Assembly: GCF_050320075.1 (NCBI RefSeq)
Contig: NZ_CP190018.1
Source: Escherichia coli
Lineage (GTDB): Bacteria > Pseudomonadota > Gammaproteobacteria > Enterobacterales > Enterobacteriaceae
Reading direction: 5' to 3' (one strand)
DNA: 64,000 nt
The notes below the pieces were generated by a model. That model saw nothing but the letters and a program-made list of their open reading frames with translations. It made no database searches and was not told the DNA's origin. The position numbers were made by a program, and so were the translations under genes. Numbering within the stretch: position 1 is the first letter of the stretch; each line of letters starts with the position of its first letter. This document shows positions 8,877-39,841 of this stretch, piece by piece.

Positions 8877-10478
8877 ATGTTTAATCGTATTCGAATTTCG
8901 ACCACGCTGTTTTTAATTTTGATTCTCTGCGGGATCTTGCAGATTGGCAGTAACGGCATGTCTTTTTGGGCATTTCGCGACGATTTGCAACGACTGAATC
9001 AGGTCGAACAGAGCAATCAGCAACGTGCGGCTTTAGCGCAAACTCGGGCGGTAATGTTACAGGCCAGTACCGCGCTGAACAAAGCGGGCACTCTGACGGC
9101 GCTTAGCTATCCGGCGGATGACATTAAAACGTTGATGACGACGGCGCGCGCCAGTCTGACGCAATCCACCACGCTGTTTAAAAGTTTTATGGCGATGACT
9201 GCGGGCAACGAGCACGTCAGGGCGTTGCAAAAAGAGACGGAGAAAAGTTTTGCCCGCTGGCACAACGATCTCGAACATCAGGCGACCTGGCTTGAAAGTA
9301 ATCAACTTTCGGATTTCCTCACTGCGCCGGTGCAGGAATCACAGAATGCGTTTGACGTTAACTTTGAGGCCTGGCAGCTGGAGATCAACCATGTGCTGGA
9401 AGCTGCCAGTGCGCAAAGCCAGCGTAACTATCACATTTCGGCGCTGGTGTTTATCAGCATGATTATTGTTGCAGCGCTCTACATCAGCAGTGCGCTGTGG
9501 TGGACGCGCAAGATGATTGTTCAACCACTGGCCATCATCGGTAGCCATTTTGACAGCATTGCTGCGGGTAATCTGGCGCGTCCGATTGCAGTGTATGGTC
9601 GCAATGAGATCACCGCCATTTTTGCCAGTCTGAAGACCATGCAGCAGGCTTTGCGTGGGACGGTAAGTGATGTGCGTAAGGGAAGCCAGGAGATGCACAT
9701 TGGTATCGCGGAGATTGTCGCAGGCAATAACGATCTCTCAAGTCGTACCGAACAGCAGGCGGCATCGCTGGCACAAACGGCCGCCAGTATGGAGCAATTA
9801 ACCGCCACGGTAGGGCAAAACGCCGATAACGCACGACAGGCGTCGGAACTGGCAAAAAATGCCGCGACAACGGCGCAGGCGGGCGGTGTTCAGGTCAGTA
9901 CCATGACTCACACCATGCAGGAGATCGCCACCAGCTCGCAAAAAATTGGCGACATTATCAGCGTTATCGACGGCATTGCTTTCCAGACCAATATTCTGGC
10001 CCTGAATGCGGCAGTGGAAGCGGCTCGCGCCGGAGAGCAGGGTCGTGGTTTTGCGGTAGTGGCAGGTGAAGTGCGCAATCTTGCCAGCCGTAGCGCCCAG
10101 GCAGCAAAAGAGATCAAAGGGCTGATCGAAGAGTCAGTCAATCGTGTCCAGCAGGGTTCGAAACTGGTGAATAACGCCGCCGCGACCATGACTGATATTG
10201 TCAGTTCGGTGACCCGCGTGAACGACATTATGGGAGAAATTGCTTCGGCCTCGGAAGAACAACGGCGGGGGATTGAGCAGGTTGCGCAGGCTGTCAGCCA
10301 GATGGATCAGGTGACACAGCAGAACGCCTCGCTGGTAGAAGAAGCGGCGGCGGCAACGGAACAACTGGCGAACCAGGCTGACCATCTTTCGTCGCGTGTG
10401 GCGGTATTTACCCTTGAAGAACATGAAGTAGCACGACATGAGTCGGCGCAGTTACATATTGCGCCAGTGGTATCCTGA
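8877..10478 (+). CDS. tap: Methyl-accepting chemotaxis protein IV (dipeptide receptor)
   Basis: 533 aa, MFNRIRISTTLFLILILCGILQIGSNG... Lacks the NWETF tail. Confidence 0.93.
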   Translation: MFNRIRISTTLFLILILCGILQIGSNGMSFWAFRDDLQRLNQVEQSNQQRAALAQTRAVMLQASTALNKAGTLTALSYPADDIKTLMTTARASLTQSTTLFKSFMAMTAGNEHVRALQKETEKSFARWHNDLEHQATWLESNQLSDFLTAPVQESQNAFDVNFEAWQLEINHVLEAASAQSQRNYHISALVFISMIIVAALYISSALWWTRKMIVQPLAIIGSHFDSIAAGNLARPIAVYGRNEITAIFASLKTMQQALRGTVSDVRKGSQEMHIGIAEIVAGNNDLSSRTEQQAASLAQTAASMEQLTATVGQNADNARQASELAKNAATTAQAGGVQVSTMTHTMQEIATSSQKIGDIISVIDGIAFQTNILALNAAVEAARAGEQGRGFAVVAGEVRNLASRSAQAAKEIKGLIEESVNRVQQGSKLVNNAAATMTDIVSSVTRVNDIMGEIASASEEQRRGIEQVAQAVSQMDQVTQQNASLVEEAAAATEQLANQADHLSSRVAVFTLEEHEVARHESAQLHIAPVVS

Positions 10479-26783: not shown

Positions 26784-27140
26784 TCAGAAAAGAGAAGATT
26801 GCTGTGGAATAGCCGGAACTGCTCCGATCTCTGGAAGCGTTTTACGTAAGTCTTCCCACAGGGTATGTACCAGTTCCGGGGCCTGGGCAATATCTGGCGT
26901 ATGTAAAAAAAGATAAGGCGTAGTGGTCTGATGCCACTGCGCTAATTTTTGTAACCAGACCTGAAATAATTCCCGGTTTTGCGTCATATCATCACTACCG
27001 ATAAAACGGATCAGCGGATTTGTCGCCGTCAGTACAGCATGTACCGGAACTTTAGGTTTTTTTCGTTGAGCGTCGCGAATAGCTTCACTGTGTGGACGTG
27101 CTGCATGAACCGGGCGGCTGTCTAAAATCATCAAGGTCTA
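26784..27140 (-). pseudogene. yecE: yecE (DUF72) C-terminal fragment, separated from its N-terminal part by the 12.2-kb insertion
   Basis: ..ILDSRPVHAARPHSEAIRDAQRKKPKVPVHAVL..PQQSSLF continues exactly from the fragment ending ..GVNRVI at 39363-39841. Confidence 0.9.
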
Positions 27141-27157
27141 AATGCACTACATGGGCA
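27125..27157. other. attL (attB left half / AAAATCA core / attP right arm GTCTAAATGCAC)
   Basis: Chromosomal CTGTCT + AAAATCA + element TCAAGGTCTAAATGCAC. See the att reconstruction finding. Confidence 0.75.
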
Positions 27158-27193
27158 CCTAAACATATACATGTGATGTTGAGGTGTTAGAAA

Positions 27194-27209
27194 GGGGGCT
27201 GTTCAGCCC
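27194..27209 (-). terminator. Hairpin downstream of the 306-aa gene
   Basis: GGGGCTG (27194-27200) pairs with CAGCCCC (27203-27209). On the minus strand it is followed by CTTTCT. Confidence 0.5.
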
Positions 27210-27218
27210 CTGATAGAC

Positions 27219-28139
27219 TTAGTAATTATCCCTGACAACTTCATCATATCTTTCAATGAAGGTTAGTTGTTTATTACTTCCATTATAACTATCAACCCAT
27301 TTGTCTACAGCTTCATCGAATAGAAATAAAAAATCCGTATAATTTATATACACTACATTATCATAATATTGGGTTGGGTGACCTCTTTTACATACAGCAA
27401 TACTAAGACGTCTTTCTTTACCCTGAGTAACTTTGTGTGAATTAAGATTAGTCATGTGAAGCAATGAGTTCCTTAATTCATATAATTCGTCGGAAGTTAC
27501 TCCAAGTTTTTGTATATCTGAGTATGTATCTAACCAATTTTGAAAGACTCTTCTTTTGTTTCCAAACTCAATATAAGCTATAGTATCAATAAATGACATT
27601 AATAGCTTGAAGCTTGACAAGTAATGTTTTTTGTTAAACAGAAGCTTTATTGGTTCCATATGGTCATCATTAAGAAGTTCCTTAATGTGAAAACCATCAT
27701 CTTTCATATACTTATCAAGATAGTCTGGCAAGTCTTTTACACCTTCAATGTGATAGTTAGGTGTGTGCTTATTCCTTAATTGCTCTGACATTGATAACTG
27801 AATATCATATTGTAATTTGCCTTTAACAACGGGGGTGACTATAGCTAAAGGGTTTTCAGGTGCATTTTGAGCTTCTAATGCTAATTCAAACGGAGCAAAA
27901 GGATTACCAATCCGCAAATTTGCATTATATCTTTCAAGTGTCAATTTGTCATTTTCTAAAACAGAAGGGTGTATCCCATAAAATAAACGACAAGAAGCTA
28001 AGTCAATCTCCAAATTCCGCTTTAAAAAATCTAATTTTTGCGCATCATCGCCATCATGTTCGTGAGGTACTATTCCGGCATGTGTGATATGAACTCCATC
28101 AGGACTAAAGCAAAATATGTTGTAGATAATCTCTTTCAT
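27219..28139 (-). CDS. Hypothetical accessory protein with a C-terminal HEPN-like RNSLLH (Rx4H) motif; possible Abi-type RNase
   Basis: 306-aa ORF, very AT-rich, at the element edge. R223-N-S-L-L-H228 is encoded at 27456-27473, within a helical C-terminal half. The N-terminus has a His/Asp cluster, HITHAGIVPHEHDGDD. Confidence 0.35.
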   Translation of the reverse strand: MKEIIYNIFCFSPDGVHITHAGIVPHEHDGDDAQKLDFLKRNLEIDLASCRLFYGIHPSVLENDKLTLERYNANLRIGNPFAPFELALEAQNAPENPLAIVTPVVKGKLQYDIQLSMSEQLRNKHTPNYHIEGVKDLPDYLDKYMKDDGFHIKELLNDDHMEPIKLLFNKKHYLSSFKLLMSFIDTIAYIEFGNKRRVFQNWLDTYSDIQKLGVTSDELYELRNSLLHMTNLNSHKVTQGKERRLSIAVCKRGHPTQYYDNVVYINYTDFLFLFDEAVDKWVDSYNGSNKQLTFIERYDEVVRDNY

Positions 28140-28400
28140 ACCATTCTAACCTTCAGTGAAAATAAAGTTTTAACTATCATTAGATTATGAACAATCACAA
28201 TTGGCCTGTAAATAACAGGGCATAAACAGGTTCGTTTAGCTTGATTTTATCACTATAACTGTCTGATTTAACGGTAACTCACCAAGTATACACACAGTAA
28301 TTACACAATCCTGTTATTATGTAACTTATTGAAATATATAAATAATTTTTACATTCTTTGTTTGGGGTAAGCTGTGTAATGTTAGTCGTCCCTCTCCAGA

Positions 28401-28444
28401 CACTATATATAGTGCTATATACAGGACTATATAACGATATATAG
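28401..28444. repeat. CTATATA box array (12-bp period), including the 14-bp palindrome CACTATATATAGTG
   Basis: CTATATA at 28403, 28415 and 28427, plus an inverted copy at 28438-28444. Palindrome at 28401-28414. Confidence 0.7.
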
Positions 28445-28742
28445 ATGTTTGGTCACATGGTATAACTATCAAACCACTTAACGATTTCCTACGTGAAAGT
28501 TAGAAAGTGATAGTTATAGTTACCTTGTCAAATCTTCGTAGTCCCTTCTTAAAAAATCGTGAAAGGTAATCTTGTTATCTATACAGAATCTACGTAGATG
28601 CTTCTTAGTGCGCAAAACAGCTATTATGTTAAAAACGCACTGTATACGTATCAGTACTGATTTATAAGGGTTTTGTGTATTGGCTGATAAGAGGCTATAC
28701 AGCACCTTGAGAGCATGTCTTCTAAGTCATTGACATATAAGG

Positions 28743-28820
28743 TCACAGAAGTTTGTAGCTGTTACAGAGAAAACTGGATAGGACTTCACAGAACTATAAA
28801 ATGTTACAGCTATTGATAGG
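28743..28820 (+). repeat. Two tandem 43-bp units TCACAGAA..GTTACAG..GATAGG
   Basis: TCACAGAA at 28743 and 28786; GTTACAG at 28761 and 28803; GATAGG at 28777 and 28815. Confidence 0.65.
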
Positions 28821-28832
28821 TGAAATCTTCTT

Positions 28833-29050
28833 GATAGATGCTTTGAAGTGTGGTGAAGGCTTTTTGAGGTGGGGCTAAACAGATATCATGAAGAAAGTCA
28901 ATAGTTGATTCGGTTTATCGAATAAACCTCATAGATATTTTAAAATTCTGCAAAGGGGGTCACATAGCTGGTGTGACGGGTACTTAGCAGCTACAGACAT
29001 CTATCAGATATTTTTGAAGATTTTTAGAAGGGGAATTTGAAGAGGGGCTA
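28833..29050 (+). repeat. Two ~45-bp degenerate direct repeats ending in TTTGARGWGGGGCTA, 172 bp apart
   Basis: Copies at 28833-28877 and 29005-29050 align over TTTGAAG..GAAGG..TTTGA(G/A)G(T/A)GGGGCTA. Confidence 0.6.
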
Positions 29051-29249
29051 CTACGATTTTATAAAAATTTTCAGATTCTGAAAAGTTACTGTACAGAATA
29101 TGTACAGATATCTTTAAAGTATCTGTAAAAACTTTTAAGATAAAAGATAGATATCCCAGAAAGGATATCCGTTTAGAAAACCTATTAAGTATCTCTTAAA
29201 AGAGAGTAAACCTTGTCAAGAGTGATTGCAATAAAAATTTTTATTTCTT

Positions 29250-29912
29250 ATGTCAATTGAGTGTATTTTAATCGGGAAACATCATGGGGGTTCTGATTAC
29301 TGGAGAACTCCATTTTTGTTATTTAAGAACTTACACCGTGAATTTATTTTCAGTCTGGATGGTGCTGCAACTAAGCACGATACGTTATTACCCCGCTTTA
29401 CGGATGATATTCACAATCAGTCATGGGATGGTGAACGGGTATTCTGTAACCCACCATACAGCGACACTAAAACATTCCTCGTAAAAGCGTCTGAGGCAGA
29501 TTTATCGGTATTCCTGATACCGTACCGACCCCAAACCATATACTGGCTTAAGCACATCTTCACAAACCCGCTTTGCCATGAAATCCGTATTCTTCATCGT
29601 GCAGTTAAATACCTTCCACCAGCAGGGCATAACAGGCTTACTATTAGGTCGCCGTTTCCAAGTGCAGTCGTTGTTTTTAAAAAAGAACCACGCAGGCATG
29701 AAATTACGCAGATGGTTTGCTGTGCTGATACATTGCTACCGTTAACCATCATTAACAGAGGAGGCTTGAGAGGAAGGCCCACCATTTACCCACCTGAGAC
29801 GCTCGACAGCTTCATAAAACTATACAGGCAAGGCAAACCCATTAAGTGCATTGCAGATGCTCTCAGAATGCCTCTGAGCACGTCATACAGGATTGCTCAA
29901 AGGTTGAGCTAG
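29250..29912 (+). CDS. Phage Dam-family N6-adenine DNA methyltransferase with a C-terminal HTH extension
   Basis: GSDYWRTPFLLF..FSLDGAAT..W.GERVFCNPPYSD matches the phage N6A-MTase family (DxWxTP, LDxAA, NPPY). Residues ~170-220 (GRPTIYPPETLDSFIKLYRQGKPIKCIADALRMPLSTSYRIAQRL) look like a resolvase-type HTH. Confidence 0.75.
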   Translation: MSIECILIGKHHGGSDYWRTPFLLFKNLHREFIFSLDGAATKHDTLLPRFTDDIHNQSWDGERVFCNPPYSDTKTFLVKASEADLSVFLIPYRPQTIYWLKHIFTNPLCHEIRILHRAVKYLPPAGHNRLTIRSPFPSAVVVFKKEPRRHEITQMVCCADTLLPLTIINRGGLRGRPTIYPPETLDSFIKLYRQGKPIKCIADALRMPLSTSYRIAQRLS

Positions 29913-30016
29913 AATTCTCATAAATATGGTCATTTACAAGACAGGTGATTTAGATATTAAGAGGTATCCCTGTGAACAATAAATGACCAATCAGTAATTA
30001 TCCTGTGAAATAATTG

Positions 30017-30045
30017 TTGCAATTTATAATCACACATGGTATAGT
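30017..30045 (+). promoter_or_regulatory. Sigma-70 promoter with extended -10
   Basis: TTGCAA (30017-30022), 17 nt spacer containing TGg, then TATAGT (30040-30045). Confidence 0.6.
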
Positions 30046-30052
30046 TTCATAG

Positions 30053-30255
30053 TGGACTGATAAAAAAGTTCATGTCTTGAAGTGGTAACACTTGGGGAGG
30101 TGTCAGATGATTGACGTATATTAACCTCTCATTCATGGTAATACCTCAGCGTTTTAATCATCGTACTGTTTCAGGCATGGACTTCTTTATCAGTCCATCA
30201 ATCCCCCAGATATTTTAATCACACAGGCTAATCGGTTTTATCCGGTTGGCCTTTT
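30053..30255 (+). ncRNA. Structured ~200-nt leader or small RNA ending in an intrinsic terminator just upstream of rep
   Basis: 22-nt closing helix 30053-30074 / 30176-30197 (20 WC pairs, 1 GU, 1 AC). GNRA hairpin at 30080-30093. Hairpin at 30095-30130. Terminator stem 30226-30235 / 30242-30251 followed by TTTT. Confidence 0.5.
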
Positions 30256-30276
30256 CACGTATGAGGTAATTTATGA

Positions 30277-31245
30277 ATGAAAAAAGAAACTAATGCTTTT
30301 ATTATGGTAGATAAACGAGTTGCACAATTCCCTAAAACATTAAAGCCAATTGACCGCTTGGTATATTTCACTATGCTGGATGGTGCTGATTATTACGAAT
30401 CTAAGTTCGGGAGATACGCACCAAGTATTGACTATTTGATGGTTATGTCTGGTGCTACACGTAATACAGTTATTGATTCACTTAAGAGACTTGAGTCACA
30501 CAGACTTATCGAAAAGACCAATGTAAAGGGTCAGCAAAGTATTTTTAAAGTATTCACGTTGGATGAGCGTCCAGAGGTCTTATCAGAACCTACCCTTGAT
30601 GAGCGTCGTAGAGCTAAATTATCAGGTCAACCAGAATCTGACAGTAACCCAACCAAAAATTGGTTACCTACCCAACCAGAATTTGGTTACCTACCTAACC
30701 AGAATTTGGTTACATGTAATACTGAATATAAAGACAAAAATATAAATACTGAAGAAGAAAGACTAAAAGGGAACTTTGAAGAAGAATCTCTTAAGAAGGG
30801 AGCTTCGCTCTGTGATTCACATGAATGTGATATTAAAGAAGATGACTTTCTTTCTTTGGATGAATTAAATGATTTTCTCTCTATGAATGAATCTGGCCTT
30901 GATAGTGAAGCTACTAAAGAGGCTGTTAAAAAGGAAGATAAAATCTCTGATGTGAATATCGATAGTGACCATAAAAACACACAGTGCCCCGCCACTGATG
31001 ATGAGATGGACCCCTTCGATGATTACCTTGATGAAGAGTCAGAGCGTGAAAAAGCCATTAAGAGGGTAGAGAAGAAAAAGAGATTCGAGCTTGCAAGACA
31101 AAAGAACAAAGTATCGGGTTTAGACCCATTCGATGACAGTGACGATGATGACTTTTCTTTCACACCAAGAAAGAAACAAACTCAGGATGACAAGAAGCAA
31201 AAAATTAAACCGAAGATGTATTTTGCTGGTGGAGGTATGCGCTAA
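30277..31245 (+). CDS. Replication initiator (N-terminal winged-HTH, acidic C-terminal tail)
   Basis: 322 aa. The N-terminus ..IDRLVYFTMLDGADYY..YLMVMSGATRNTVIDSLKRLESHRLIEK.. resembles HTH_36-type Rep or lambda-O-like initiators. Iterons lie inside the ORF. SD GAGGT at 30263-30267. Confidence 0.55.
   Translation: MKKETNAFIMVDKRVAQFPKTLKPIDRLVYFTMLDGADYYESKFGRYAPSIDYLMVMSGATRNTVIDSLKRLESHRLIEKTNVKGQQSIFKVFTLDERPEVLSEPTLDERRRAKLSGQPESDSNPTKNWLPTQPEFGYLPNQNLVTCNTEYKDKNINTEEERLKGNFEEESLKKGASLCDSHECDIKEDDFLSLDELNDFLSMNESGLDSEATKEAVKKEDKISDVNIDSDHKNTQCPATDDEMDPFDDYLDEESEREKAIKRVEKKKRFELARQKNKVSGLDPFDDSDDDDFSFTPRKKQTQDDKKQKIKPKMYFAGGGMR
30629..30719 (+). repeat. Iteron array (candidate ori): three 23-bp units plus one degenerate unit, each with an AACCAnAAnTTGGTT palindrome, followed by an AT-rich tract
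   Basis: Units start at 30651, 30674 and 30697 (AACCA(A/G)AATTTGGTTACCTACC). Degenerate unit at 30629-30650. AT-rich tract at 30715-30760. Confidence 0.65.
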
Positions 31246-31541
31246 TGAAAGAATATCACGGTGAAAAGAGATACAAAGATTACCTGTTAAAGCGTTATAG
31301 CATTTCTCGTGAAGGCCACTTAATGAAGGATACTCACGGGGAAGTTTACCGGATTAGACCGAAGAAAGAAGGGAGGGATTATTTCTTTTACGATGGTGTG
31401 ACAGATTTAAAGATTGATGCTTTGAAGTTTGCGGCGCTGTATCATTATGATATCTGGGACTCAGTCCACCAGCTACGATTAAAAGACGGTGACCCCGGTA
31501 ATCTGAGGGCCACCAATATTATCAAGGGAAAGTGCCGGTAA
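31245..31541 (+). CDS. Hypothetical 98-aa protein, weakly NUMOD4/HNH_3-like (degenerate)
   Basis: ATGA overlap with the rep stop; GGAGG SD. YSISREGHL.. and VHQLRLKDGDPGNLRATNI loosely recall homing-endonuclease-type DNA-binding modules. Confidence 0.3.
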   Translation: MKEYHGEKRYKDYLLKRYSISREGHLMKDTHGEVYRIRPKKEGRDYFFYDGVTDLKIDALKFAALYHYDIWDSVHQLRLKDGDPGNLRATNIIKGKCR

Positions 31542-31550
31542 GTCCACCAG

Positions 31551-31727
31551 CTATTTATTTATTGAAATCTCTATCTCAACACGAAGAAGTTTAAGTCGAA
31601 TTGTAAGCTTTGTCTTTTTTGTAATGACTCGATTCATAACGCAAAACACCAATAGCACAATAAATACCGCAAAGCCCAACGAGCTAAAACGATGAGATTC
31701 AATAATTGCTGTGAAAAAATCATGCAT
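31551..31727 (-). CDS. Small single-pass membrane protein (58 aa)
   Basis: MHDFFTAIIESHRFSSLGFAVFIVLLVFCVMNRVITKKTKLTIRLK... AAGGA SD 6 nt upstream. Own promoter at 31778-31806 on the minus strand. Confidence 0.45.
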   Translation of the reverse strand: MHDFFTAIIESHRFSSLGFAVFIVLLVFCVMNRVITKKTKLTIRLKLLRVEIEISINK

Positions 31728-31777
31728 TAATTTTCCTTTTGCGAAAGGAAACAGCACCTGTATCAGCCCCTATAACC

Positions 31778-31828
31778 ATAATATCATGTAAATGAGATGT
31801 TGACAATATGTTAAATAAATGTTATGAT
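31778..31828. promoter_or_regulatory. Back-to-back divergent sigma-70 promoters with overlapping -35 hexamers
   Basis: Plus strand: TTGACA (31800-31805), 17 nt, TATGAT (31823-31828). Minus strand: TTGTCA (complement of 31801-31806), 17 nt, TATTAT (complement of 31778-31783). Confidence 0.65.
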
Positions 31829-31864
31829 TGTAGTATGAGTAAGAGATTTAAGGAGATTTTTACA

Positions 31865-32155
31865 ATGACTCACACAGTTACGCGCCTTTTGCCAGAGGCA
31901 TTTGAACGACTGGCAGCAATCAAAGCCAAATATCCCGATATGAAGCACACAGCGCTTGTTGGAGAGCTTTTAAAAGAGTCGGTAACCCTGACCCCTTTCG
32001 ATAACGTTAAGGGCGTTGCAGAGGGTTCTAAGGCCATCAGAATCACAACGGACCAACTGGAACTACTCAAAGCACAGTCCGCAGTAGCAGGTTGCTCAAT
32101 GATTCAGGTGTTAAGCGCAAAGGTCCATCAATTAGCGGATAGGCTGGGGGTTTAA
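31865..32155 (+). CDS. Tandem ribbon-helix-helix (RHH) protein, candidate switch repressor
   Basis: 96 aa. Two strand-helix-helix patterns (TVTRLLPEAFERLAAIKAKY..HTALVGELLKES and AIRITTDQLELLKAQSAVAG.SMIQVLSAKVHQLADRL). AAGGAG SD at 31850-31855. Confidence 0.4.
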   Translation: MTHTVTRLLPEAFERLAAIKAKYPDMKHTALVGELLKESVTLTPFDNVKGVAEGSKAIRITTDQLELLKAQSAVAGCSMIQVLSAKVHQLADRLGV

Positions 32156-32580
32156 TGCTATGCACATTTGATTATCATGCGTTTTATCGCCATAGAGGCC
32201 ACCTTGTCCGTGAGAATAGCGGAACATGGAAAGATTTAACTCGTAATGCTGAACCCTTCACACACCAGCAATTAAAATCCCGCTTCTCCAGATGGAAGAA
32301 TGCACCAGCAGATACTGGTGATTTTGAGATTATCCATACCTTCGATTATGCCTCAGAAGATGACCTTCACGATGCAATTAAGCTGATTGAAGACTTCAAT
32401 ACCTCAGAAGATGTGGATGGTGACAAATATAAATCCCGTGGTAACCGCTATAACCGTGATGATATCACTCAGGCCATAAATGCTGGTCAATCTCAGCGAT
32501 ACATTACAGAAAAATATGGTATTTCACGGAGACAGTATTTCTACGTTAAATCATTGATTAATAAAGACAATTCAAAATAA
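32155..32580 (+). CDS. Hypothetical 141-aa protein with C-terminal HTH
   Basis: TAATG overlap with the upstream gene. The C-terminus DDITQAINAGQSQRYITEKYGISRRQYFYVKSL resembles a resolvase/terminase-small-type HTH. Confidence 0.4.
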   Translation: MLCTFDYHAFYRHRGHLVRENSGTWKDLTRNAEPFTHQQLKSRFSRWKNAPADTGDFEIIHTFDYASEDDLHDAIKLIEDFNTSEDVDGDKYKSRGNRYNRDDITQAINAGQSQRYITEKYGISRRQYFYVKSLINKDNSK

Positions 32581-32741
32581 CCATCTCAGTAACGGTAGAA
32601 TGCACTTTACAGGCAGAGTTGCACCTTAATTTGATAAATTACCTTACCAGCCAGTGCAACTCCCTCTGTAACCCGCATGATTACTGGTCTCAGAATGGCT
32701 ATTTTAAGAGGTCTGAGATGTGTTTTGTAGGAGATTTAAAA

Positions 32742-33065
32742 ATGAACAACTTCCCATTACAGATTTTCGTTGATAACGACACCGCTATGATGGTGCAAAG
32801 CTTCAGTGATGCAGGTATTAGCATTGATTTTGACAGGCTGTTAAAGCTAATGGCTGATAATGAAGAAAACGTCTCTGACTTTATTCACTCGGTGGAGTTT
32901 AACGAGCCTCGAATGATGTTACCAATTACAGACAGTAATATGAAAAGATTGGTTATTGAGCAAACGAACAAATACAGTATTTCCCCAGAGCAATTTTTGA
33001 AAGGTGCTGTGACAATCCTGTACAGCGATAATATTTTGGTTACGGATTCCGTGAGGGTTCACTAA
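32742..33065 (+). CDS. Hypothetical 107-aa protein
   Basis: ATG at 32742 preceded by GTAGGAG. The longer ORF-track start (32619) lies in a structured non-coding leader. Confidence 0.45.
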   Translation: MNNFPLQIFVDNDTAMMVQSFSDAGISIDFDRLLKLMADNEENVSDFIHSVEFNEPRMMLPITDSNMKRLVIEQTNKYSISPEQFLKGAVTILYSDNILVTDSVRVH

Positions 33066-33142
33066 TGGGCTTAATAATTGCTTGGACGTTGCTTGGCTTA
33101 TTTGTTGGTTGCTGGGTAGGCAGCACAGTAAATAGAAATTGA
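33065..33142 (+). CDS. Possible 25-aa hydrophobic peptide MGLIIAWTLLGLFVGCWVGSTVNRN
   Basis: TAATG stop-start overlap with the upstream ORF. GAGGG lies 7 nt upstream. One predicted TM helix. Confidence 0.3.
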   Translation: MGLIIAWTLLGLFVGCWVGSTVNRN

Positions 33143-33166
33143 TGTTACCAATCTGTTAAAAAGCTG

Positions 33167-33195
33167 TTGACAAATAACCTTAAGCATGAGATGAT
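33167..33195 (+). promoter_or_regulatory. Candidate promoter, paralogous to the 31800 promoter
   Basis: TGTTGACAA..17 nt..GATGAT, compared with TGTTGACAA..17 nt..TATGAT at 31798-31828. Confidence 0.4.
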
Positions 33196-33636
33196 GGTAA
33201 TAGGGGAGAGCAACTCTCTCTTATTTTTCTTTCAAAATAATCCGATGGATGGATATTCTGAATTGGAAAGGTGCAATGCTTTTCGTCATGGCCTTTCAGT
33301 TTAGTCTGAGAGGCTATCTCAAAAAGTGCTTAATCATTCATTGAACCCTTTACAGCTTTGCCCTAACTCATGATTAGGGCTTTCTTTAAGAGTTTTTAAA
33401 CAGAGCTTTTAAAGAAAGTTTTTCCTGAAACTTCGTTAACGTTAAAGCAAACCTTCAAAGCCCTTCACAGATGAGGATGATTCCATGAATATCCGAATCA
33501 CCTATGTTTAGGGCTTTTTTCAGCTTTTAAAAAGCATACTTGGCAAACGCCTTTTAAGCCTCTTCTAAGTTCGAGGATGTCAGGTGTGCTTTTTAAAAAC
33601 TGAAACATAAATTATCTTAGAAGAGGAAAGGTATTA

Positions 33637-34341
33637 ATGGCTATCCGTGATGAAAATGAAATGATTATTGAAAACAAACCAAGTGCACTTGATATTCACG
33701 AATTAAGTTTGCGTGAATCTTTTGATAGAGCTTGGCGGGAATCACACGAAGTAAATAAAGGTCCATATATTCCACCAGAACCACTCGAGATTCCAAGAGT
33801 TGAAATTGATTTTTCTATGAACGAACGGTGTGAACTTGATTTGAAGTTGAAGCTACAACGCCGATATTTCCAAGCTATTAAAGACTCTCAAGAAGCAATG
33901 AGAAGTGTTTATGAGAAAATTCAGTCCAAGCTTGAAGACGAAATTGACGAAATGGCTATTTTGATGGAGCTTCAAACCAATCCTTATGCTTATTTCTCTC
34001 GACTAGACCGTGACGGTTGGGGGTATGACCCTGTAGAGATTGGTAAAGTGATTGCAGATTTACCAGAAGGTCAAAGGGTTATTCGTACGGAAAGGGCCAT
34101 CAGAGCGCCACATCAACTGTCTCTAATTGTTGCTGATAAATCACAAGCTGAGCTTGAAGAAATTGCCAAAGAGAAACTGATGAAAGCAAGAGAAAATGAG
34201 ATTAATTTGCTGAAATCAAGACTGGCTAAGCTGATTAGTGACCATCAAGCGCTGGCTAAGGAGTACCGTCAAGAGTTGGCACAGATTATCAGCTTCAATG
34301 ATTTTCTGAGTGTTCCACGAGAATTTAGCAAGGCTGTTTGA
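33637..34341 (+). CDS. Hypothetical 234-aa coiled-coil-rich protein
   Basis: Good SD (GAGGAAAGG). Charged heptad-like C-terminal third. No family recognised. Confidence 0.5.
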   Translation: MAIRDENEMIIENKPSALDIHELSLRESFDRAWRESHEVNKGPYIPPEPLEIPRVEIDFSMNERCELDLKLKLQRRYFQAIKDSQEAMRSVYEKIQSKLEDEIDEMAILMELQTNPYAYFSRLDRDGWGYDPVEIGKVIADLPEGQRVIRTERAIRAPHQLSLIVADKSQAELEEIAKEKLMKARENEINLLKSRLAKLISDHQALAKEYRQELAQIISFNDFLSVPREFSKAV

Positions 34342-34364
34342 TTATGAATTAAAAGAGGTGATTA

Positions 34365-34583
34365 ATGTATGAAGACCGTTTGGAAACTATCAAGGCAGTT
34401 TGTGAAAAACTTAAAAACCAACCACGTAAACCAAAAACGGTAAAGAGTAAGCATCAGCCTGTCACCTCAAACAGCAAAATAAAGATTCGCAAAATTCCTT
34501 CGTGGTGCATTGACCGTATTCCGGTTGGTTCAAGAATTATTCGTGAAGATGGTGATTATCATTGGGTATCAGTTGTTGGTTAG
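34365..34583 (+). CDS. Hypothetical 72-aa basic protein
   Basis: AAGAGGTG SD. No family recognised. Confidence 0.45.
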   Translation: MYEDRLETIKAVCEKLKNQPRKPKTVKSKHQPVTSNSKIKIRKIPSWCIDRIPVGSRIIREDGDYHWVSVVG

Positions 34584-34598
34584 TTAGTAAAAATCTAC

Positions 34599-34638
34599 GG
34601 GAGAGATTATCGAGTGATATCGGTAGCTCTCCCTTTTT
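34599..34638 (+). terminator. Intrinsic terminator immediately upstream of the tape-measure gene
   Basis: GGGAGAG (34599-34605) pairs with CTCTCCC (34627-34633), with an inner helix, followed by TTTTT. Confidence 0.7.
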
Positions 34639-34671
34639 CGTATATGAACACTTAAGAGGTGAAAAATATGA

Positions 34672-36804
34672 ATGAGCAAATTCACAGTTGATAGTTTTAT
34701 CGTTGAATTAAGCTTCAATGAAAACATTATTAAGGGCTTGCAAAGAGTTGAAAAGGCAGCTTTGCAGTCAGCACAAAGAATTGAAAAGAACCTAAATAAA
34801 GGTTTCAGGATTAATACAAAGCAGCTTGATAGTAATTTAACGGCTTCTTTAGGGCAGCTTGAAAGGAAGTTTAATAAGGCCTTTGACAAGATTGAACAGA
34901 GAGCAAGAAATACTAAAGCTTTCCAGTTTACCACCAGATTTAATGACACTGTTAATCCTCCAAAACAACCGAGACAGCCACGAATTAGCGGCAACAGAGC
35001 AATCACAGCAGCTTACTCAGCGAATATGAGCAAGCTAAAAGGCTTTGACCCTATTTTGCAGAAATACATCAAATCTCAGTTTTACGGGCTATCTGCTAAA
35101 GCCGGTTCAATGGATTCTTCAAAATTCAATGAGAAGTTAGCTCAGTTAAACGCTTCAGTCAGAGAAGCAATTGCTAAAGCCAGAGGTCATACATCCACCA
35201 GCATTAATGGTGACAGAGCAGCTAATAGTCTTGATAACCTGTCTTCAGCAGCAGTTAAAACAGCAGGTGCATTTATCTCAATGCAGGCTGTATTAGCCAG
35301 TTATCAGAAGATTATGGAAATTGGTTTACAGCGTGCAAGTGCTGAACGTTCAATTGATTTCGTATTTGATAAAGATGCAGGTCAAGTAAAAGAGTTCACA
35401 AAGTCATTAGCTCAAACAACGGGTTTAGATATCGCTGAACTGCAATCACAGTTTGCTGGTTTTGGTGCTTCAGCTAAAGAGTCTATGGGCATTCAAGGTT
35501 CTGAAGAACTTTTTAAAAATATGATTGGCTATGCTCGTCTGATGGGGAGAAGTGAAGAAGAGATTAAGCGAGCACTGACAGCATTATCACAGATGGCTGG
35601 TAAGGGTCAGGTTATGGCTGAAGAGCTTAAGGGGCAATTAGCTGAAGCTGTTCCTGGTATGGTTCAGGTATTCGCTAAAGCAACCGGAAGGAATGAACAA
35701 GAGCTATTTGATGCCATGAAGAAGGGGGCTTTAAAATCTGCCGATACTCTTCAGAAGGTCACTCAGGAACTGAATAAACAAATCACCGCTAAAGGTGGCT
35801 GGAAAGCTATTTCAGAAAGTACACAGGCACAACTAGGGAACCTGAAAAACTCTTGGAATACCACGCTTGATAGTATCTTCAGAGGTTCTGAAGATGGTCT
35901 GCAAGATTTTACAAGAAGCTTAACAACGCTTTTAAACGCTCTTGGTGGAAGTGGTAAAAGTCTTGGTGAATCTCTTGGTAGTCTCATGACTTCTATGTCA
36001 CATGGTGTCGATTCATTGACTGATATCAGCTACAGGGTAAGAGCATTCTTCGATGAGGTGACATTAGCTTACCGTTCACTAAATGACACTCAGAAAAAAA
36101 TTGTTGATGGTTTATCTGATGGGTTAATTGATGGTTTGAAGATGCTTGCCGTAGCTGTTACTGCTCAAAAGGCTGCAAATGTAGCTGGAGGCTTGTTAAA
36201 CCTTGCAAATGCTGTTACTTCATTCGGTGATGCTGTTAATAAAGCTAAAGCTGGCAAGGCTGGTTCTTCAGGTGGTGCGCTAAATAAAGTTGGTAGAGTT
36301 GTTCTTTATGCTGAGTTGGTGAACTTTGCTCTTGATAATTTAAACCCTGAAGCGGCTAAGAATCCGAACTTACACCAATCAGGTATTGGAACAGAGACAA
36401 ACTTCAACCCTGAATACAAAGGCGATTCATCTAAACCAAACCAAATTAATGATGGATGGGCTAAGATTGGTAGTTCTATCGCTGACTGGTTTAATGGTGC
36501 GGCTAATAAAATTGCTAACTTCCAAGACCCGATGAATAACTTTGTTAATAACACACAATCAACTCCACCAGCTATCACAGGTGACATGGTTAATAGCAAT
36601 GCTCAACTTGCTATGGCTGTATCAGAGTTAGGAAGAAAGGTAGACGCTTTAACAGTAGAAGCTAAGAAGCCTTTATCAGTTAATATCAAAGGTGAAGCAA
36701 TTGTTAGACCGGATGAACCAGCTTTCTTTACTTTCAATCAATCAGCTAATGACCAGTTCACGCAGGATATGCTCTTAAGTTCAAGCTATCCAGAGGAAGA
36801 ATGA
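34672..36804 (+). CDS. Phage tail tape measure protein
   Basis: 710 aa. The segment ..RALTALSQMAGKGQVMAEELKGQLAEAVPGMVQVFAKATGRNEQELFDAMKKGALKS.. matches the conserved tape-measure core (lambda-type tape_meas domain). Long helical, Gly/Ala-rich remainder. Confidence 0.8.
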   Translation: MSKFTVDSFIVELSFNENIIKGLQRVEKAALQSAQRIEKNLNKGFRINTKQLDSNLTASLGQLERKFNKAFDKIEQRARNTKAFQFTTRFNDTVNPPKQPRQPRISGNRAITAAYSANMSKLKGFDPILQKYIKSQFYGLSAKAGSMDSSKFNEKLAQLNASVREAIAKARGHTSTSINGDRAANSLDNLSSAAVKTAGAFISMQAVLASYQKIMEIGLQRASAERSIDFVFDKDAGQVKEFTKSLAQTTGLDIAELQSQFAGFGASAKESMGIQGSEELFKNMIGYARLMGRSEEEIKRALTALSQMAGKGQVMAEELKGQLAEAVPGMVQVFAKATGRNEQELFDAMKKGALKSADTLQKVTQELNKQITAKGGWKAISESTQAQLGNLKNSWNTTLDSIFRGSEDGLQDFTRSLTTLLNALGGSGKSLGESLGSLMTSMSHGVDSLTDISYRVRAFFDEVTLAYRSLNDTQKKIVDGLSDGLIDGLKMLAVAVTAQKAANVAGGLLNLANAVTSFGDAVNKAKAGKAGSSGGALNKVGRVVLYAELVNFALDNLNPEAAKNPNLHQSGIGTETNFNPEYKGDSSKPNQINDGWAKIGSSIADWFNGAANKIANFQDPMNNFVNNTQSTPPAITGDMVNSNAQLAMAVSELGRKVDALTVEAKKPLSVNIKGEAIVRPDEPAFFTFNQSANDQFTQDMLLSSSYPEEE

Positions 36805-36967
36805 TTTCTTATATATCCGTGTGCTACGTGATTTCTTCTGAACAGATATACCCACTAAAAATTATTTTTTACGTAGCTCACGCTTAACAGAGAAAATACT
36901 TATATATCAAAGGCTTGGTTAAAAATGATTAAAATACACTAAGCCTTTGAAATCAAAGGAGAATTTA

Positions 36968-37741
36968 ATGATTTACTCTAATCAGATTCGTTACAGTGGT
37001 AAAGATGGCGTTTACTTTCATCTACAAGGCCAGCCAGATAATTTCTTGTCACTATCAGCTACTGAGAACATGGAATTTGACAGCCCTATGATGGTTACCA
37101 CTCAAAATATGCAATCAGGGCAGACTGTCACAGATAATGTAATGCGTTCACCCAGAACTATTTCAATCAGTGGTGTGGTTGTAGTTGGTGAATCCGGTAG
37201 TATCCTTATCTCAAGAGATAATAAGCTGGTGGAAAACTTCATAGACACTCTTGAAAACTGGCGTGACCAGAAGCAAATTATCTCAGTTGTCTGTAAAGAT
37301 GGTATTAAGATTGACGACTCAATTATTACAAACTTTAAAGCCTCTAAAGATGTTGGTATTGCCAATGGTCTTAGAATCCAATTAACTTTTCAGGAAATTA
37401 ACTTTAAAGCTATTGTGGGTCAGACTGATATCTCGGCTGCGACCGGAAGGACTTCTACCACAAGTGATGGTGGTGCTACCAGTAAAAAGAATACAGGGAA
37501 CACTACGACAAGCTTAGGTAACGGTATGTTGATGTGTCAGGAGCTATATAATCGCTCTACGAGTGAACTTACTAATGAGCAACTTCAAGCCCGTATCAAT
37601 TGTGGTAAAAATGTCAGAGTTAAGAACGGAAAAAGCACCTTCTCAGATGCCGCTAATGAGCAAGCTTCAAAGGTGCTTAATAATGCTGGTACAGGTAGTA
37701 CTTTGAAGAAGTATTCTGTTAATCCTAACAAGCGATACTGA
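36968..37741 (+). CDS. Tail-tip or distal-tail-like protein (family usually encoded just after tape-measure genes)
   Basis: 257 aa from [14 protein letters not shown].. (AAGGAG SD at 36956). The pattern [30 protein letters not shown] .. [12 protein letters not shown] resembles Dit-like tail proteins. Confidence 0.4.
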
Positions 37742-37755
37742 CGATAGAATCTCAA

Positions 37756-39279
37756 CTATATGATAACCTCATCAACATCTATTAAACCCCTCTCAGTGAC
37801 TTCAGAAAGCGACTGTATAGCCTCTGTAACGTTGTCTGAGGGGTTTTCTGTTATTGGTAAGGTGATTGCTTTACCGTTGTGAAAAGTTACTTTACAGCGA
37901 CGTTTAGCAGTATTTAAAACGACCTCTTTAACAGCACTTTTGATTATCAGTTGTGCTTCAATCCTTCCCGCCTTTGTAGTCAAGTCACAATCAGACAAAC
38001 AACCCACATCAATAGATTTAAGGCGTTGTGTCTCCTTCTCGATATCCGCATCAACTTGTGATAGCTCATTCTTTAGTTGTCTTAGTTTGCTGGTAATAGC
38101 GGACAAGTCTTCAATTTCAAGTGATAGCTGTACCAGCTTTTCAATATTGCTTGAGATGTGTTCACGGTGTAGCTTCAGTGTGTCTATGGTATTCGTCATA
38201 TCGCTATCAAATCGGTCAAGACGAGATAGCAGGGCAAGCAATGTACCATCGGTTTGCTTACGTGAAAGTCCTTTAGCACTACAACGGTTTTCATTACGAA
38301 GAGGACAACGATAAATCCCGTTTCTTGTATCGCTAAAGCCTGTGATAATCAAAGCATGACCACATTCAGAACAACGGATAACACCTTTGAAAAGATTCAC
38401 AGCCATTGGCTTATCTGAAGCAGGTTTTCTACCGTAACGAGCATATGATAGTTGTTGAACTTTGTAGAATGTTGTTTCATCTATAATTGCAGGATAATAA
38501 CCAGATATCTCCTCACAGCCTTTAGGTGTGAAGTAACCAATTACAGAGCGATTCTTCAAAAGGTCTTGCACTGAGGTTTGACCAAACTTACCTGCTTTGT
38601 ACTGGTTAAGCGTCTGGTGACCTTCAGCATTAAGAGTTCTGACAATCTCCCAGATAGACTTACCCTCTAACCGTAGCTGAAAGCACCTCTTCACAGTCTC
38701 CACTTTCTCAGGTATCACAGAGAAGCTTTTACGGTCATCATTAAGCTTAAGCCATGCAGGACAACGCCTAGAAATCTTGATACCAGCTTTAGCAGCTTCT
38801 TTCTTTGCATCCCATGCAGCTTGTATACGCTCAGCCTTACGTAATGATTCCTCATGCGCCCTTTGCATTATCAAAATGCTTTTAATCAGAGCTAACGGGT
38901 CTTTAAGAGATTCCCTTGTGTAATGTTCACCATCGGACAGGGTGACTACATCTACACCAGAGCGAAGAATGTTTCTGAGTAGCTCACTTGCTTGGTCTAC
39001 GTCCTGACGTGAGAGACGGTCTAAACTCTCGATTAGTAGTGTATCACCAGCTTTAACAAGCCCTTTCTCGATAGCGGTTAAAAAGTCACCTAAGCCACCT
39101 TTCAAGTGCTTACCAGTGAACCCGCTAACGCCTAAATCACGAAAAGTAAGGGATTCATCCAGATAGTACTCAGGATGAGCCTTAAGCCAATCAGTGACCA
39201 TCTTAGCCTGTCGTCTTAATGAGTCGCCTCTGGATTGCTTCTCAGATGAAAACCGGATGTAACTGATTGCACGTTTCAT
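37756..39279 (-). CDS. Large serine recombinase (integrase)
   Basis: 507 aa. N-terminal resolvase catalytic domain (AISYIRFSSEKQSRGDSLRRQ), recombinase domain, Cys-rich zinc ribbon (CSECGH..YRCP..C), and C-terminal coiled coil. Confidence 0.9.
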   Translation of the reverse strand: MKRAISYIRFSSEKQSRGDSLRRQAKMVTDWLKAHPEYYLDESLTFRDLGVSGFTGKHLKGGLGDFLTAIEKGLVKAGDTLLIESLDRLSRQDVDQASELLRNILRSGVDVVTLSDGEHYTRESLKDPLALIKSILIMQRAHEESLRKAERIQAAWDAKKEAAKAGIKISRRCPAWLKLNDDRKSFSVIPEKVETVKRCFQLRLEGKSIWEIVRTLNAEGHQTLNQYKAGKFGQTSVQDLLKNRSVIGYFTPKGCEEISGYYPAIIDETTFYKVQQLSYARYGRKPASDKPMAVNLFKGVIRCSECGHALIITGFSDTRNGIYRCPLRNENRCSAKGLSRKQTDGTLLALLSRLDRFDSDMTNTIDTLKLHREHISSNIEKLVQLSLEIEDLSAITSKLRQLKNELSQVDADIEKETQRLKSIDVGCLSDCDLTTKAGRIEAQLIIKSAVKEVVLNTAKRRCKVTFHNGKAITLPITENPSDNVTEAIQSLSEVTERGLIDVDEVII

Positions 39280-39340
39280 TGTTCACCTCACCAATAGCAG
39301 TTGGGCTTGTACCAACCCCTAGATTGTATCGCTTTAGATG

Positions 39341-39369
39341 GTGTATTTAAACGTGTCTAATAAAAATCA
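39341..39369. other. attR (attP left arm GTGTATTTAAAC / AAAATCA core / attB right half follows)
   Basis: Element GTGTATTTAAACGTGTCTAAT + AAAATCA, then chromosomal CCCGATTAACG. Confidence 0.75.
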
Positions 39370-39841
39370 CCCGATTAACGCCGCGCTGATGTAAACCGCG
39401 ATTAAGCGTTTGTTCCTCTTCCCCTTTGGCGAAAAACTGTGGATGGCGGACTTCCACACCATAATTAAATTCGCCGGGAAGGGAATCGAGAAAATGCCAA
39501 AGCGCAGGCAGATCCCGTGGGCCAAATGTGGCAGGCAGTTGCAGCCAGTATTGCCCAATGCGCGGCGCTAACGGTGACATGCGGGTCAAAAATTCAGTCA
39601 CTAAATCATCGCAATGCCGTAATGCTGCCTGATGCGAAATGGTCGCCGGAAACTTAAAACAGAAGCGAAAATTATCTGTGGTCTGCTCACGCCAGCGCAG
39701 GACAACCTCGGATTTCGGCAGGGCGTAAAGCGTGGTGTTGCCCTCCACACAGTTAAAGTGGCGGGCATACTCTTCAAGGCTGGTGATCCCCAACCGCACC
39801 CATTTAGGATGCGACCATTGCGGCAGACCGATGTAAATCAT
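39363..39841 (-). pseudogene. yecE: yecE N-terminal fragment (159 native codons, then 5 element-encoded codons and a stop)
   Basis: [48 protein letters not shown] followed by FIRHV-stop read from element DNA. Confidence 0.9.

Follow-up and report, generated by a model that had tools for sequence, protein, structure and literature searches.

We found that yecE, in the 64,000-nt stretch of Escherichia coli DNA analysed here (referred to throughout as the window), is interrupted by a 12,232-bp element (27131–39362), which was very probably inserted into codon 157 by its own large serine integrase. The element is delimited by both joints, and the 7-bp sequence AAAATCA is the sole block common to attL, attR, attB and attP. 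The 3′ part of yecE (26784–27130, minus strand), which spans codons ~158 to the stop and ends in the shared core, matches DUF72 and corresponds to a partial DUF72 gene in the annotation of an identical locus (L003). On the other side of the element, the B′ half-site and the 5′ part of yecE (39365–39841, minus strand) are identical to intact yecE, with a DUF72 match on the ORF at 39347–39841. Several per cent of complete E. coli genomes have yecE annotated as a 'pseudogene', a recurrent call for which the element accounts.

The insertion site in yecE

Read from the window sequence, attL consists of CTGTCT (27118–27123), AAAATCA (27124–27130) and TCAAGGTCTAAATGCAC (27131–27147); with its upstream bases the left joint reads ggcTGTCT-AAAATCA-TCAAGGTCTAAATGCAC. 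It retains the B half-site of attB (27100–27123), which is identical to intact yecE, and the 22-nt P′ half-site of attP (27126–27147), whose outer arm is GTCTAAATGCAC at 27136–27147. In attR, the 22-nt P half-site (39341–39362) is made up of the outer arm GTGTATTTAAAC (39341–39352) and GTGTCTAATA (39353–39362), followed by AAAATCA (39363–39369) and CCCGATT (39370–39376). The first-pass annotation had reported the correct attL string at coordinates 10 too high (27128–27157 in place of 27118–27147). For attR, its coordinates and its count of a 22-nt spacer were right and one A had been lost from its string, which was written AAT-AAAATCA where the sequence is AATA-AAAATCA.

The attB rebuilt earlier from the two joints, together with the restored yecE frame R-V-I-L-D-S, proved to be an exact match to the intact gene. 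Uninterrupted yecE of strain 7/2 reads GGCTGTCTAAAATCACCCGATTAACG across the site, identical to the rebuilt attB. When 26784–27130 is joined to 39370 onwards, the product equals the strain 7/2 allele at 819 of 819 nt, contains no stop codon and encodes ...NRVILDSRPVH.... In the attR-region search, all genomes with uninterrupted yecE among the rows listed match the window from base 39363 (the first A) rightwards. Alignment of attB to intact yecE of other genomes had been proposed as a check; strain 7/2 is identical, and the uninterrupted alleles among the listed rows agree from base 39363 rightwards. The complete agreement of the rejoined gene, together with the matches starting at the first A, indicates that the insertion was conservative to the base and that the exchange took place inside AAAATCA. 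The earlier description of the insertion as precise can accordingly be kept, being base-exact by both the attB match and the rejoined gene.

yecE is a known target of Stx phages, which attach there through a tyrosine integrase and a 21-bp att (PMC8112680, PMC3603311), and this precedent speaks for insertion of the present element by something other than its serine integrase, for instance by a transposase, by microhomology-mediated joining or by a tyrosine integrase. We regard such a mechanism as hardly credible. The Stx site lies at the other end of yecE, beside a tyrosine integrase and with a reported 21-bp att (PMC8112680), whereas the present element contains neither a tyrosine integrase nor a transposase, shows no target duplication past the common core and has joints that are identical in dozens of divergent copies. 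In E. coli O157:H7 PV15-279 (L002, 16085–18152), a Stx2 prophage with a tyrosine integrase joins the 5′ end of yecE, overlapping the integrase gene, at a junction ~450 bp from the present site, across which yecE is intact in that genome. The two insertions share the host gene that they interrupt, but the known Stx-phage site can be ruled out as the one used here on account of its position, enzyme class and att sequence.

The element and its integrase

The element is compact (11–12 kb) and lacks head, terminase and lysis genes, unlike an ordinary prophage. Adjoining attL is a variable cargo gene (27219–28139, minus strand, 306 aa), for which we found no match in Pfam, PHROG, PADLOC or NCBIfam. 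A non-coding leader (28934–29189), in which the segments 28934–29096 and 29132–29189 are homologous to non-coding DNA of Felix O1-type phages, precedes a gene for a Dam-type adenine methyltransferase with a C-terminal HTH (29250–29912, plus strand; PF05869, phrog_111). A putative replication initiator is encoded at 30277–31245 (plus strand; weak matches to phrog_270, 428 and 678, which are replication initiation proteins). The tape-measure protein (34672–36804, plus strand; PF20155, phrog_4036), related to that of Felix O1, and a Dit-like tail protein homologous to Felix O1 ORF68 (36968–37741, plus strand; PF21821, phrog_3721) are the products of the sole structural genes. The element also has several small genes of unassigned function, with no match in PADLOC or NCBIfam. 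The cargo slot (window 27219–28139 and 28140–28930) holds a 190-aa small serine recombinase in two related copies (L014, L285), an AP2/ERF-type protein in another (L284) and no annotated gene in two more (L013, L015).

The gene at 37756–39279 (minus strand) encodes a 507-aa protein with the three domains of the class, Resolvase, Recombinase and Zn_ribbon_recom (PF00239, residues 4–164; PF07508, residues 190–276; PF13408, residues 296–350), all over the curated cut-offs, which agrees with its first annotation as a large serine integrase. Its closest solved relative is the C-terminal domain of A118 integrase (4KIS/6DNW), with E = 2.6e-5 over the C-terminal part only. Among phage proteins, its nearest homologues are the YbcK-like proteins of lambdoid coliphages at 36% identity, and no integrase above this value is present in the phage records searched. 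Literature searches on yecE with serine integrases and on the protein accessions retrieved no description of the integrase or its sites, and the portion of the supplement text of Durrant et al. 2022 (PMC10083194) available to us contains neither the att strings nor the start of the integrase sequence. The integrase and its sites are thus without an earlier description that we could find, and the att site belongs to the well-known large-serine-integrase class.

The system resembles those of the phage large serine integrases A118/LI, phiC31, Bxb1 and SPbeta in its three-domain enzyme. It also shares with these systems an attP of ~50 bp with inverted half-sites around a central dinucleotide, a shorter and weakly symmetric attB with a short common core, and a conservative, precise exchange (PMC11722253). 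It differs from them in its very weak sequence relation to any solved integrase, in its target, which is yecE of Enterobacteriaceae, and in its carrier, which is an 11–12 kb element rather than a complete phage. The truncated yecE ORF (39347–39841, minus strand) stops 68 nt upstream of int on the same strand (window 39280–39841), so that the integrated int could be transcribed by read-through from the yecD-yecE promoter.

Architecture and direct sighting of attP

The attP of the element is 46–50 bp long and is composed of two imperfect inverted 22-nt half-sites, with the outer arms GTGTATTTAAAC and GTCTAAATRCAC, around a central AA; its 50-bp sequence is TAGTGTATTTAAACGTGTCTAATAAAAATCATCAAGGTCTAAATACACTA. 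On recounting, the window arms GTGTATTTAAAC and GTCTAAATGCAC are inverted repeats matching at 10 of 12 positions, the same number as first reported. In most related copies the right arm reads GTCTAAATACAC, which raises the match to 11/12, or to 13/14 with the flanking TA. We scored symmetry as the number of complementary positions over 24 bases on each side of a centre. With the first AA of AAAATCA as the centre, attP scored 15/24, and its commoner ACAC variant 16, compared with 4–9 at the other centres from −3 to +9, in agreement with the dyad centre proposed in the first-pass annotation. As a background, 24 of 63,940 window positions score at least 15/24 (3.8e-4), and 7.8e-5 of positions have a 12-nt arm pair with the same spacing and 10 or more matches; given six candidate centres, the probability of such symmetry by chance is ~2–4e-3. 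The resulting arrangement of 22 + 2 + 22 bp in inverted half-sites is that expected of a large-serine-integrase attP (PMC11722253), as had been claimed.

Seven copies were found through internal genes and not through the arms, and a single R position is the only variation in their two half-sites. On the P′ side, conservation ends at the end of the arm and the cargo beyond is unrelated between copies; some metagenome copies diverge directly after the CAC of the P′ arm. On the P side, the first 18 nt are identical in E. coli, E. albertii, C. freundii and one other host, with integrases that are 80–94% identical. The orientation of the element is the same in every copy examined.

The rebuilt attP turned out to be a real junction, seen in a relative of the window copy. 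A scan of metagenome contigs with the P′ arm returned 95 stretches, mostly chance matches, among which 26 have AAAATCA to the left of the arm: 23 are attL in yecE, two (L030 and L057) are another junction, and one (L020) is attP. The last is a contig of 11,473 nt that reads ...gtgtatttaaacgtgtctaataAAAATCAtcaaggtctaaatacac... / ...tagtgtatttaaacgtgtctaataAAAATCAtcaaggtctaaatacacta..., identical to the rebuilt P-AAAATCA-P′. It is a circular permutation of a related element (92–93%) and contains no yecE sequence. Once 43 nt of sequencing adapter are set aside, its two ends map to within one base of each other on a related copy. Since misassembly through the 7-bp repeat cannot produce this join, reads spanning attP existed, derived from either an excised circle or a tandem array. 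The exact attP string was not found in IMG/VR, where the nine loci holding the integrase are all integrated copies, and a scan of species-representative genomes with the P arm gave four chance matches only.

Sister elements with other integrases

The 11-kb body of the element also occurs with two other large serine integrases, at mdtG (L277 2841–17000, L116 9960–14270) and at yciI/tonB (L276 4110–16010). These sister elements have the same order of genes (Dam, Rep-like, small genes, tape measure, ORF68-like and an integrase on the opposite strand) and an attP dyad inside the core, whereas their integrases are only 67% (P0006, mdtG) and 34% (tonB) identical to the present one and their cores are TCAG and CAATGACCCTTGA, respectively. 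In the mdtG element, the attP dyad falls on the AG of TCAG with a score of 15/22, compared with at most 10 elsewhere. In the element between yciI and tonB, it falls on an AC inside the 13-bp core CAATGACCCTTGA with 15/24. The latter insertion duplicates the start codon of tonB, and the gene stays intact. The 46–50 bp attP and the yecE attB constitute a native E. coli large-serine-integrase system that, together with the mdtG and tonB integrase/att pairs, could serve as orthogonal integration tools.

Position of the crossover

Enzymes of this class cleave at a central dinucleotide that must match between the partners, mismatched ends not being religated (PMC11722253). The exact crossover cannot be read from the sequence inside a 7-bp identity block. 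We infer that the exchange most likely occurred at the first AA of AAAATCA (27124–27125 in attL and 39363–39364 in attR), because the attP symmetry, a deletion at a pseudo-site, the sister dyads and the register of the half-sites, taken with the class rule on matching dinucleotides, together favour it. This is the position given in the first-pass annotation, and our confidence in it is good.

Exchange by the same integrase at another dinucleotide of AAAATCA, with the second AA (27125–27126) the likeliest or else the middle of the block, is unlikely in our judgement. The identity of the joints permits any of six dinucleotides, and automated att predictors assume the middle of the identity block, but a shift by one base lowers the attP symmetry from 15–16 to 8–9 of 24. 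Moreover, both sister attP dyads lie inside the core, and the half-sites of the yecE and mdtG elements can be aligned (A2 T3 ... T14 A15 A16 A17 ... CAC) only with the yecE centre at the first AA.

A further constraint comes from the two metagenome contigs with the other junction, L030 and L057, which stem from different assemblies and are circularly permuted. In both, P′ is joined to the interior of int with the junction gtttgaccAAAATCAtcaagg, and the deletion removes the 5′ part of int and the P arm. The corresponding pseudo-attB, designated X, lies at 38576–38595 in the window and reads GTTTGACC AAA CTTACCTGC; copies with a complete int read gtttgaccAAACTTACC at this place, with one variant, L009, reading AAATGAACC. 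As a pseudo-attB should, the site has a right half, AAACTTACCCGG, that is similar to B′, AAAATCACCCGA, when both are read in one register. We tentatively attribute the deletion to the integrase. If the integrase made the deletion by exchange at identical dinucleotides, the crossover would be restricted to core positions 1–2 or 2–3, because the pseudo-site has only AAA in common with attP. Core positions 3–4 to 6–7 would thereby be ruled out, and the second AA, at positions 2–3, fits this junction as well as the first. The circular L030 and L057 contigs are ~10.6 kb long, with int shortened by its first ~230 codons and no P arm; persistence of this int-less form by autonomous replication is one possibility.

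The attB site has the form GGCTGTCT-AA-AATCACCCG, and its inner CAGCCG (B) mirrors CACCCG (B′) around the AA. attB and attP differ except for the common AAAATCA, and their central dinucleotides are identical. The symmetry of attB counts for the alternatives in that it does not pick out the first AA: it amounts to 7/24 there and reaches its best value, 15/24, when centred on CT 27122–27123 (window 27098–27147), which lies beyond the identity block, 2 bp left of the attP dyad. This CT cannot be the crossover because attP has TA at that position. The B arm holds overlapping CAGCCG and CGCCCG and can thus be read in two registers, and the sister attB sites at mdtG and tonB are without a strong dyad; the CT dyad is unexplained and probably accidental. 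In this enzyme class, the motif for the outer zinc-ribbon domain is expected 4–5 bp nearer to the centre in attB than in attP half-sites. For the P-type motif TAAAT.CAC (positions 14–22), a clear counterpart was not recognised at positions 9–18 in six B-type half-sites, and the best attB dyad is 2 bp off-centre. A crossover in a second common block, TGTCTAA, was also considered and rejected, as it predicts joints with four extra bases on the wrong side, which were not observed.

With the exchange placed at the first AA, the integration can be modelled on the known steps of the enzyme class. A synapse would form between integrase dimers on attP and attB, and both strands would be cut, through phosphoserine links, around the first AA of the common block to give 2-nt overhangs. 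Religation of the ends would follow a 180-degree rotation of one half-site pair and yield attL (27124) and attR (39363) with no base gained or lost. Since AA is not palindromic, the orientation of the insertion would be fixed. Excision would restore intact yecE and release a circular element.

Distribution and mobility

A relative of the element, usually at 88–92% identity and with gene order conserved, is present in about 500 of the 5,426 complete E. coli genomes. Copies that are 100% identical occur in two other complete genomes (chicken, China; human). The yecE attR was present in four of 60 evenly spaced rows of the attR-region search, which suggests that ~6–7% of genomes carry it. An insertion sequence, ISEc12 of the IS21 family, is located in the tape-measure gene of L015 (12135–14437) and in the integrase gene of the mdtG element L277 (14063–16365), and some copies are therefore decaying.

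These damaged copies raise the question of whether the joints are relics, in which case the element would be a decayed, immobile prophage fragment spread by vertical descent and by homologous recombination of its flanks. The missing head, terminase and lysis genes, the copies that are hit by IS elements or truncated in int, and the fact that no excised form of the exact window copy was seen are all compatible with such a history. We nevertheless consider it quite improbable. The int ORF and both half-sites are intact in the window, the two halves of yecE are free of mutations, and an attP junction is present on a whole-element circular contig of a relative. In addition, the same 11-kb body is found with three integrases at three sites, its gene order is kept across E. 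coli, E. albertii and C. freundii, and its copies differ by 8–12% in DNA, whereas E. coli core genes differ far less.

Insertion by the resident integrase remains the preferred reading, and the circular metagenome copies suggest that excision occurs. It is plausible that the window copy is recent or still mobile, as its unmutated yecE halves, intact int and 100% identical copies elsewhere all fit. The first-pass annotation had called the insertion recent, which is plausible on the same grounds and is not provable from the joints. The window copy may be active at present, and a directionality factor is presumably needed.

Relationship to Felix O1-type phages

The element, whose only structural genes are a tape-measure gene and a further tail gene, was compared with phage records. 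The tape-measure protein is 34–39% identical to Felix O1 ORF67, and at the DNA level only the first ~95 and the last 30 bases of its gene match Felix O1, at 81% and 97%, respectively. The ORF68-like gene is closer to Felix O1 ORF68, the gene that follows the tape measure in the phage, with 72% protein and 80% DNA identity, and in other copies of the element it is 92–95% identical in DNA to that of coliphage Pr103Blw. The DNA regions shared with Felix O1-type phages are window 28934–29189, 34661–34754 and 36776–37741; for its central 5.4 kb, no phage record gave a DNA match.

The two leader segments upstream of the methylase have matches in 254 phage records, which are named as phages of Escherichia, Salmonella, Shigella or Citrobacter or as Felixounavirus, and every record examined is of the Felix O1 type (Felixounavirus). 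One segment corresponds to a divergent intergenic region of Felix O1-type phages. The other is situated ~70 nt inside the left terminal repeat, which is annotated in Pr103Blw with a length of 581 bp; the terminal repeat of Felix O1-type phages has been described (PMC8303462). This location is the only hint at induction, packaging or transfer by a helper. Across the shared leader segments and tail genes, the Felix O1 type is the only kind of phage record matched.

Several features by which phage satellites are recognised were found in the element, namely an integrase, a Rep-like protein, a Dam methylase, the lack of a full set of virion genes and a genetic link to a candidate helper. Felix O1-type phages are strictly lytic. 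Because phages with this life cycle share signals and recent exchange with the element, we hypothesize that its relationship to them may be parasitic or defensive. Tentatively, and with belief and doubt close to balance, we propose that the element belongs to an undescribed family of 11–12 kb elements in Escherichia, Citrobacter and relatives that are satellites, or defence islands resembling satellites, of strictly virulent myophages of the Felix O1 type. Each member would have its own replication initiator, a tape measure and following gene exchanged with the helper, non-coding signals of the helper (one of them by the terminal repeat), and one of at least three swappable large serine integrases (yecE, mdtG, tonB) with a central dinucleotide matched to the host. 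A literature search on Felixounavirus and satellites retrieved no paper on such an element.

A close parallel is the Vibrio cholerae PLE, which is a satellite of ICP1, a lytic myophage (bioRxiv 10.1101/671271). PLE, too, is integrated and compact, encodes a large serine recombinase and a replication initiator of its own, has no capsid genes and is linked to a strictly virulent myophage. In contrast to PLE, the present element carries tape-measure and ORF68-like tail genes; the likeness proposed is one of logic. If the proposal is true, the Vibrio PLE/ICP1 system would have a counterpart in enterobacteria.

For Salmonella and E. coli, phages of the Felix O1 type find wide use in typing, biocontrol and therapy. 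Should the proposal hold, several per cent of E. coli strains would harbour a parasite of these phages in the chromosome, with possible effects on phage efficacy and gene transfer.

The site in other hosts

In other hosts, attR keeps GTGTATTTAAACGTGTCT and then differs, continuing as GATT-AG in E. albertii, GTCC-AG in C. freundii and GTCG-AG in one other host (L115 ~9920–9960, minus strand; L152; L149–L151). The central pair in all three is AG, which follows the host Leu codon CTN. On this basis, the crossover dinucleotide is predicted to be host-adapted, being AA in E. coli and AG in the other hosts. In C. freundii and the one other host, the six bases after GTGTCT (GTCCAG and GTCGAG, respectively), to the left of AATCA or GATAA in attR, can be read as the Leu-Asp codons of host yecE. 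Either attP in these two hosts shares ~13 bp with attB, as at tonB, or the exchange is located further to the left. In C. freundii, the 13-bp identity would show as an attL reading ...CTGTCCAGAATCATCAAGG, whereas a crossover 6 bp further left would show as ...GGCTAATAAAAATCATCAAGG and would contradict the placement at the first AA.

We searched for the attL of these hosts by several routes. Scans of IMG/VR for a Citrobacter-type attL and for the P′ arm gave chance matches only. The methylase homologues among the matches listed are Escherichia and Shigella proteins only, which provided no route to attL in other species, and a protein of the C. freundii locus used as the query matched the ISKpn21 transposase and unrelated contigs. 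In C. freundii (L115, 1–9509), a prophage with a tyrosine integrase lies directly beside the 5′ fragment of yecE and the serine-integrase element, such that two elements occupy one gene.
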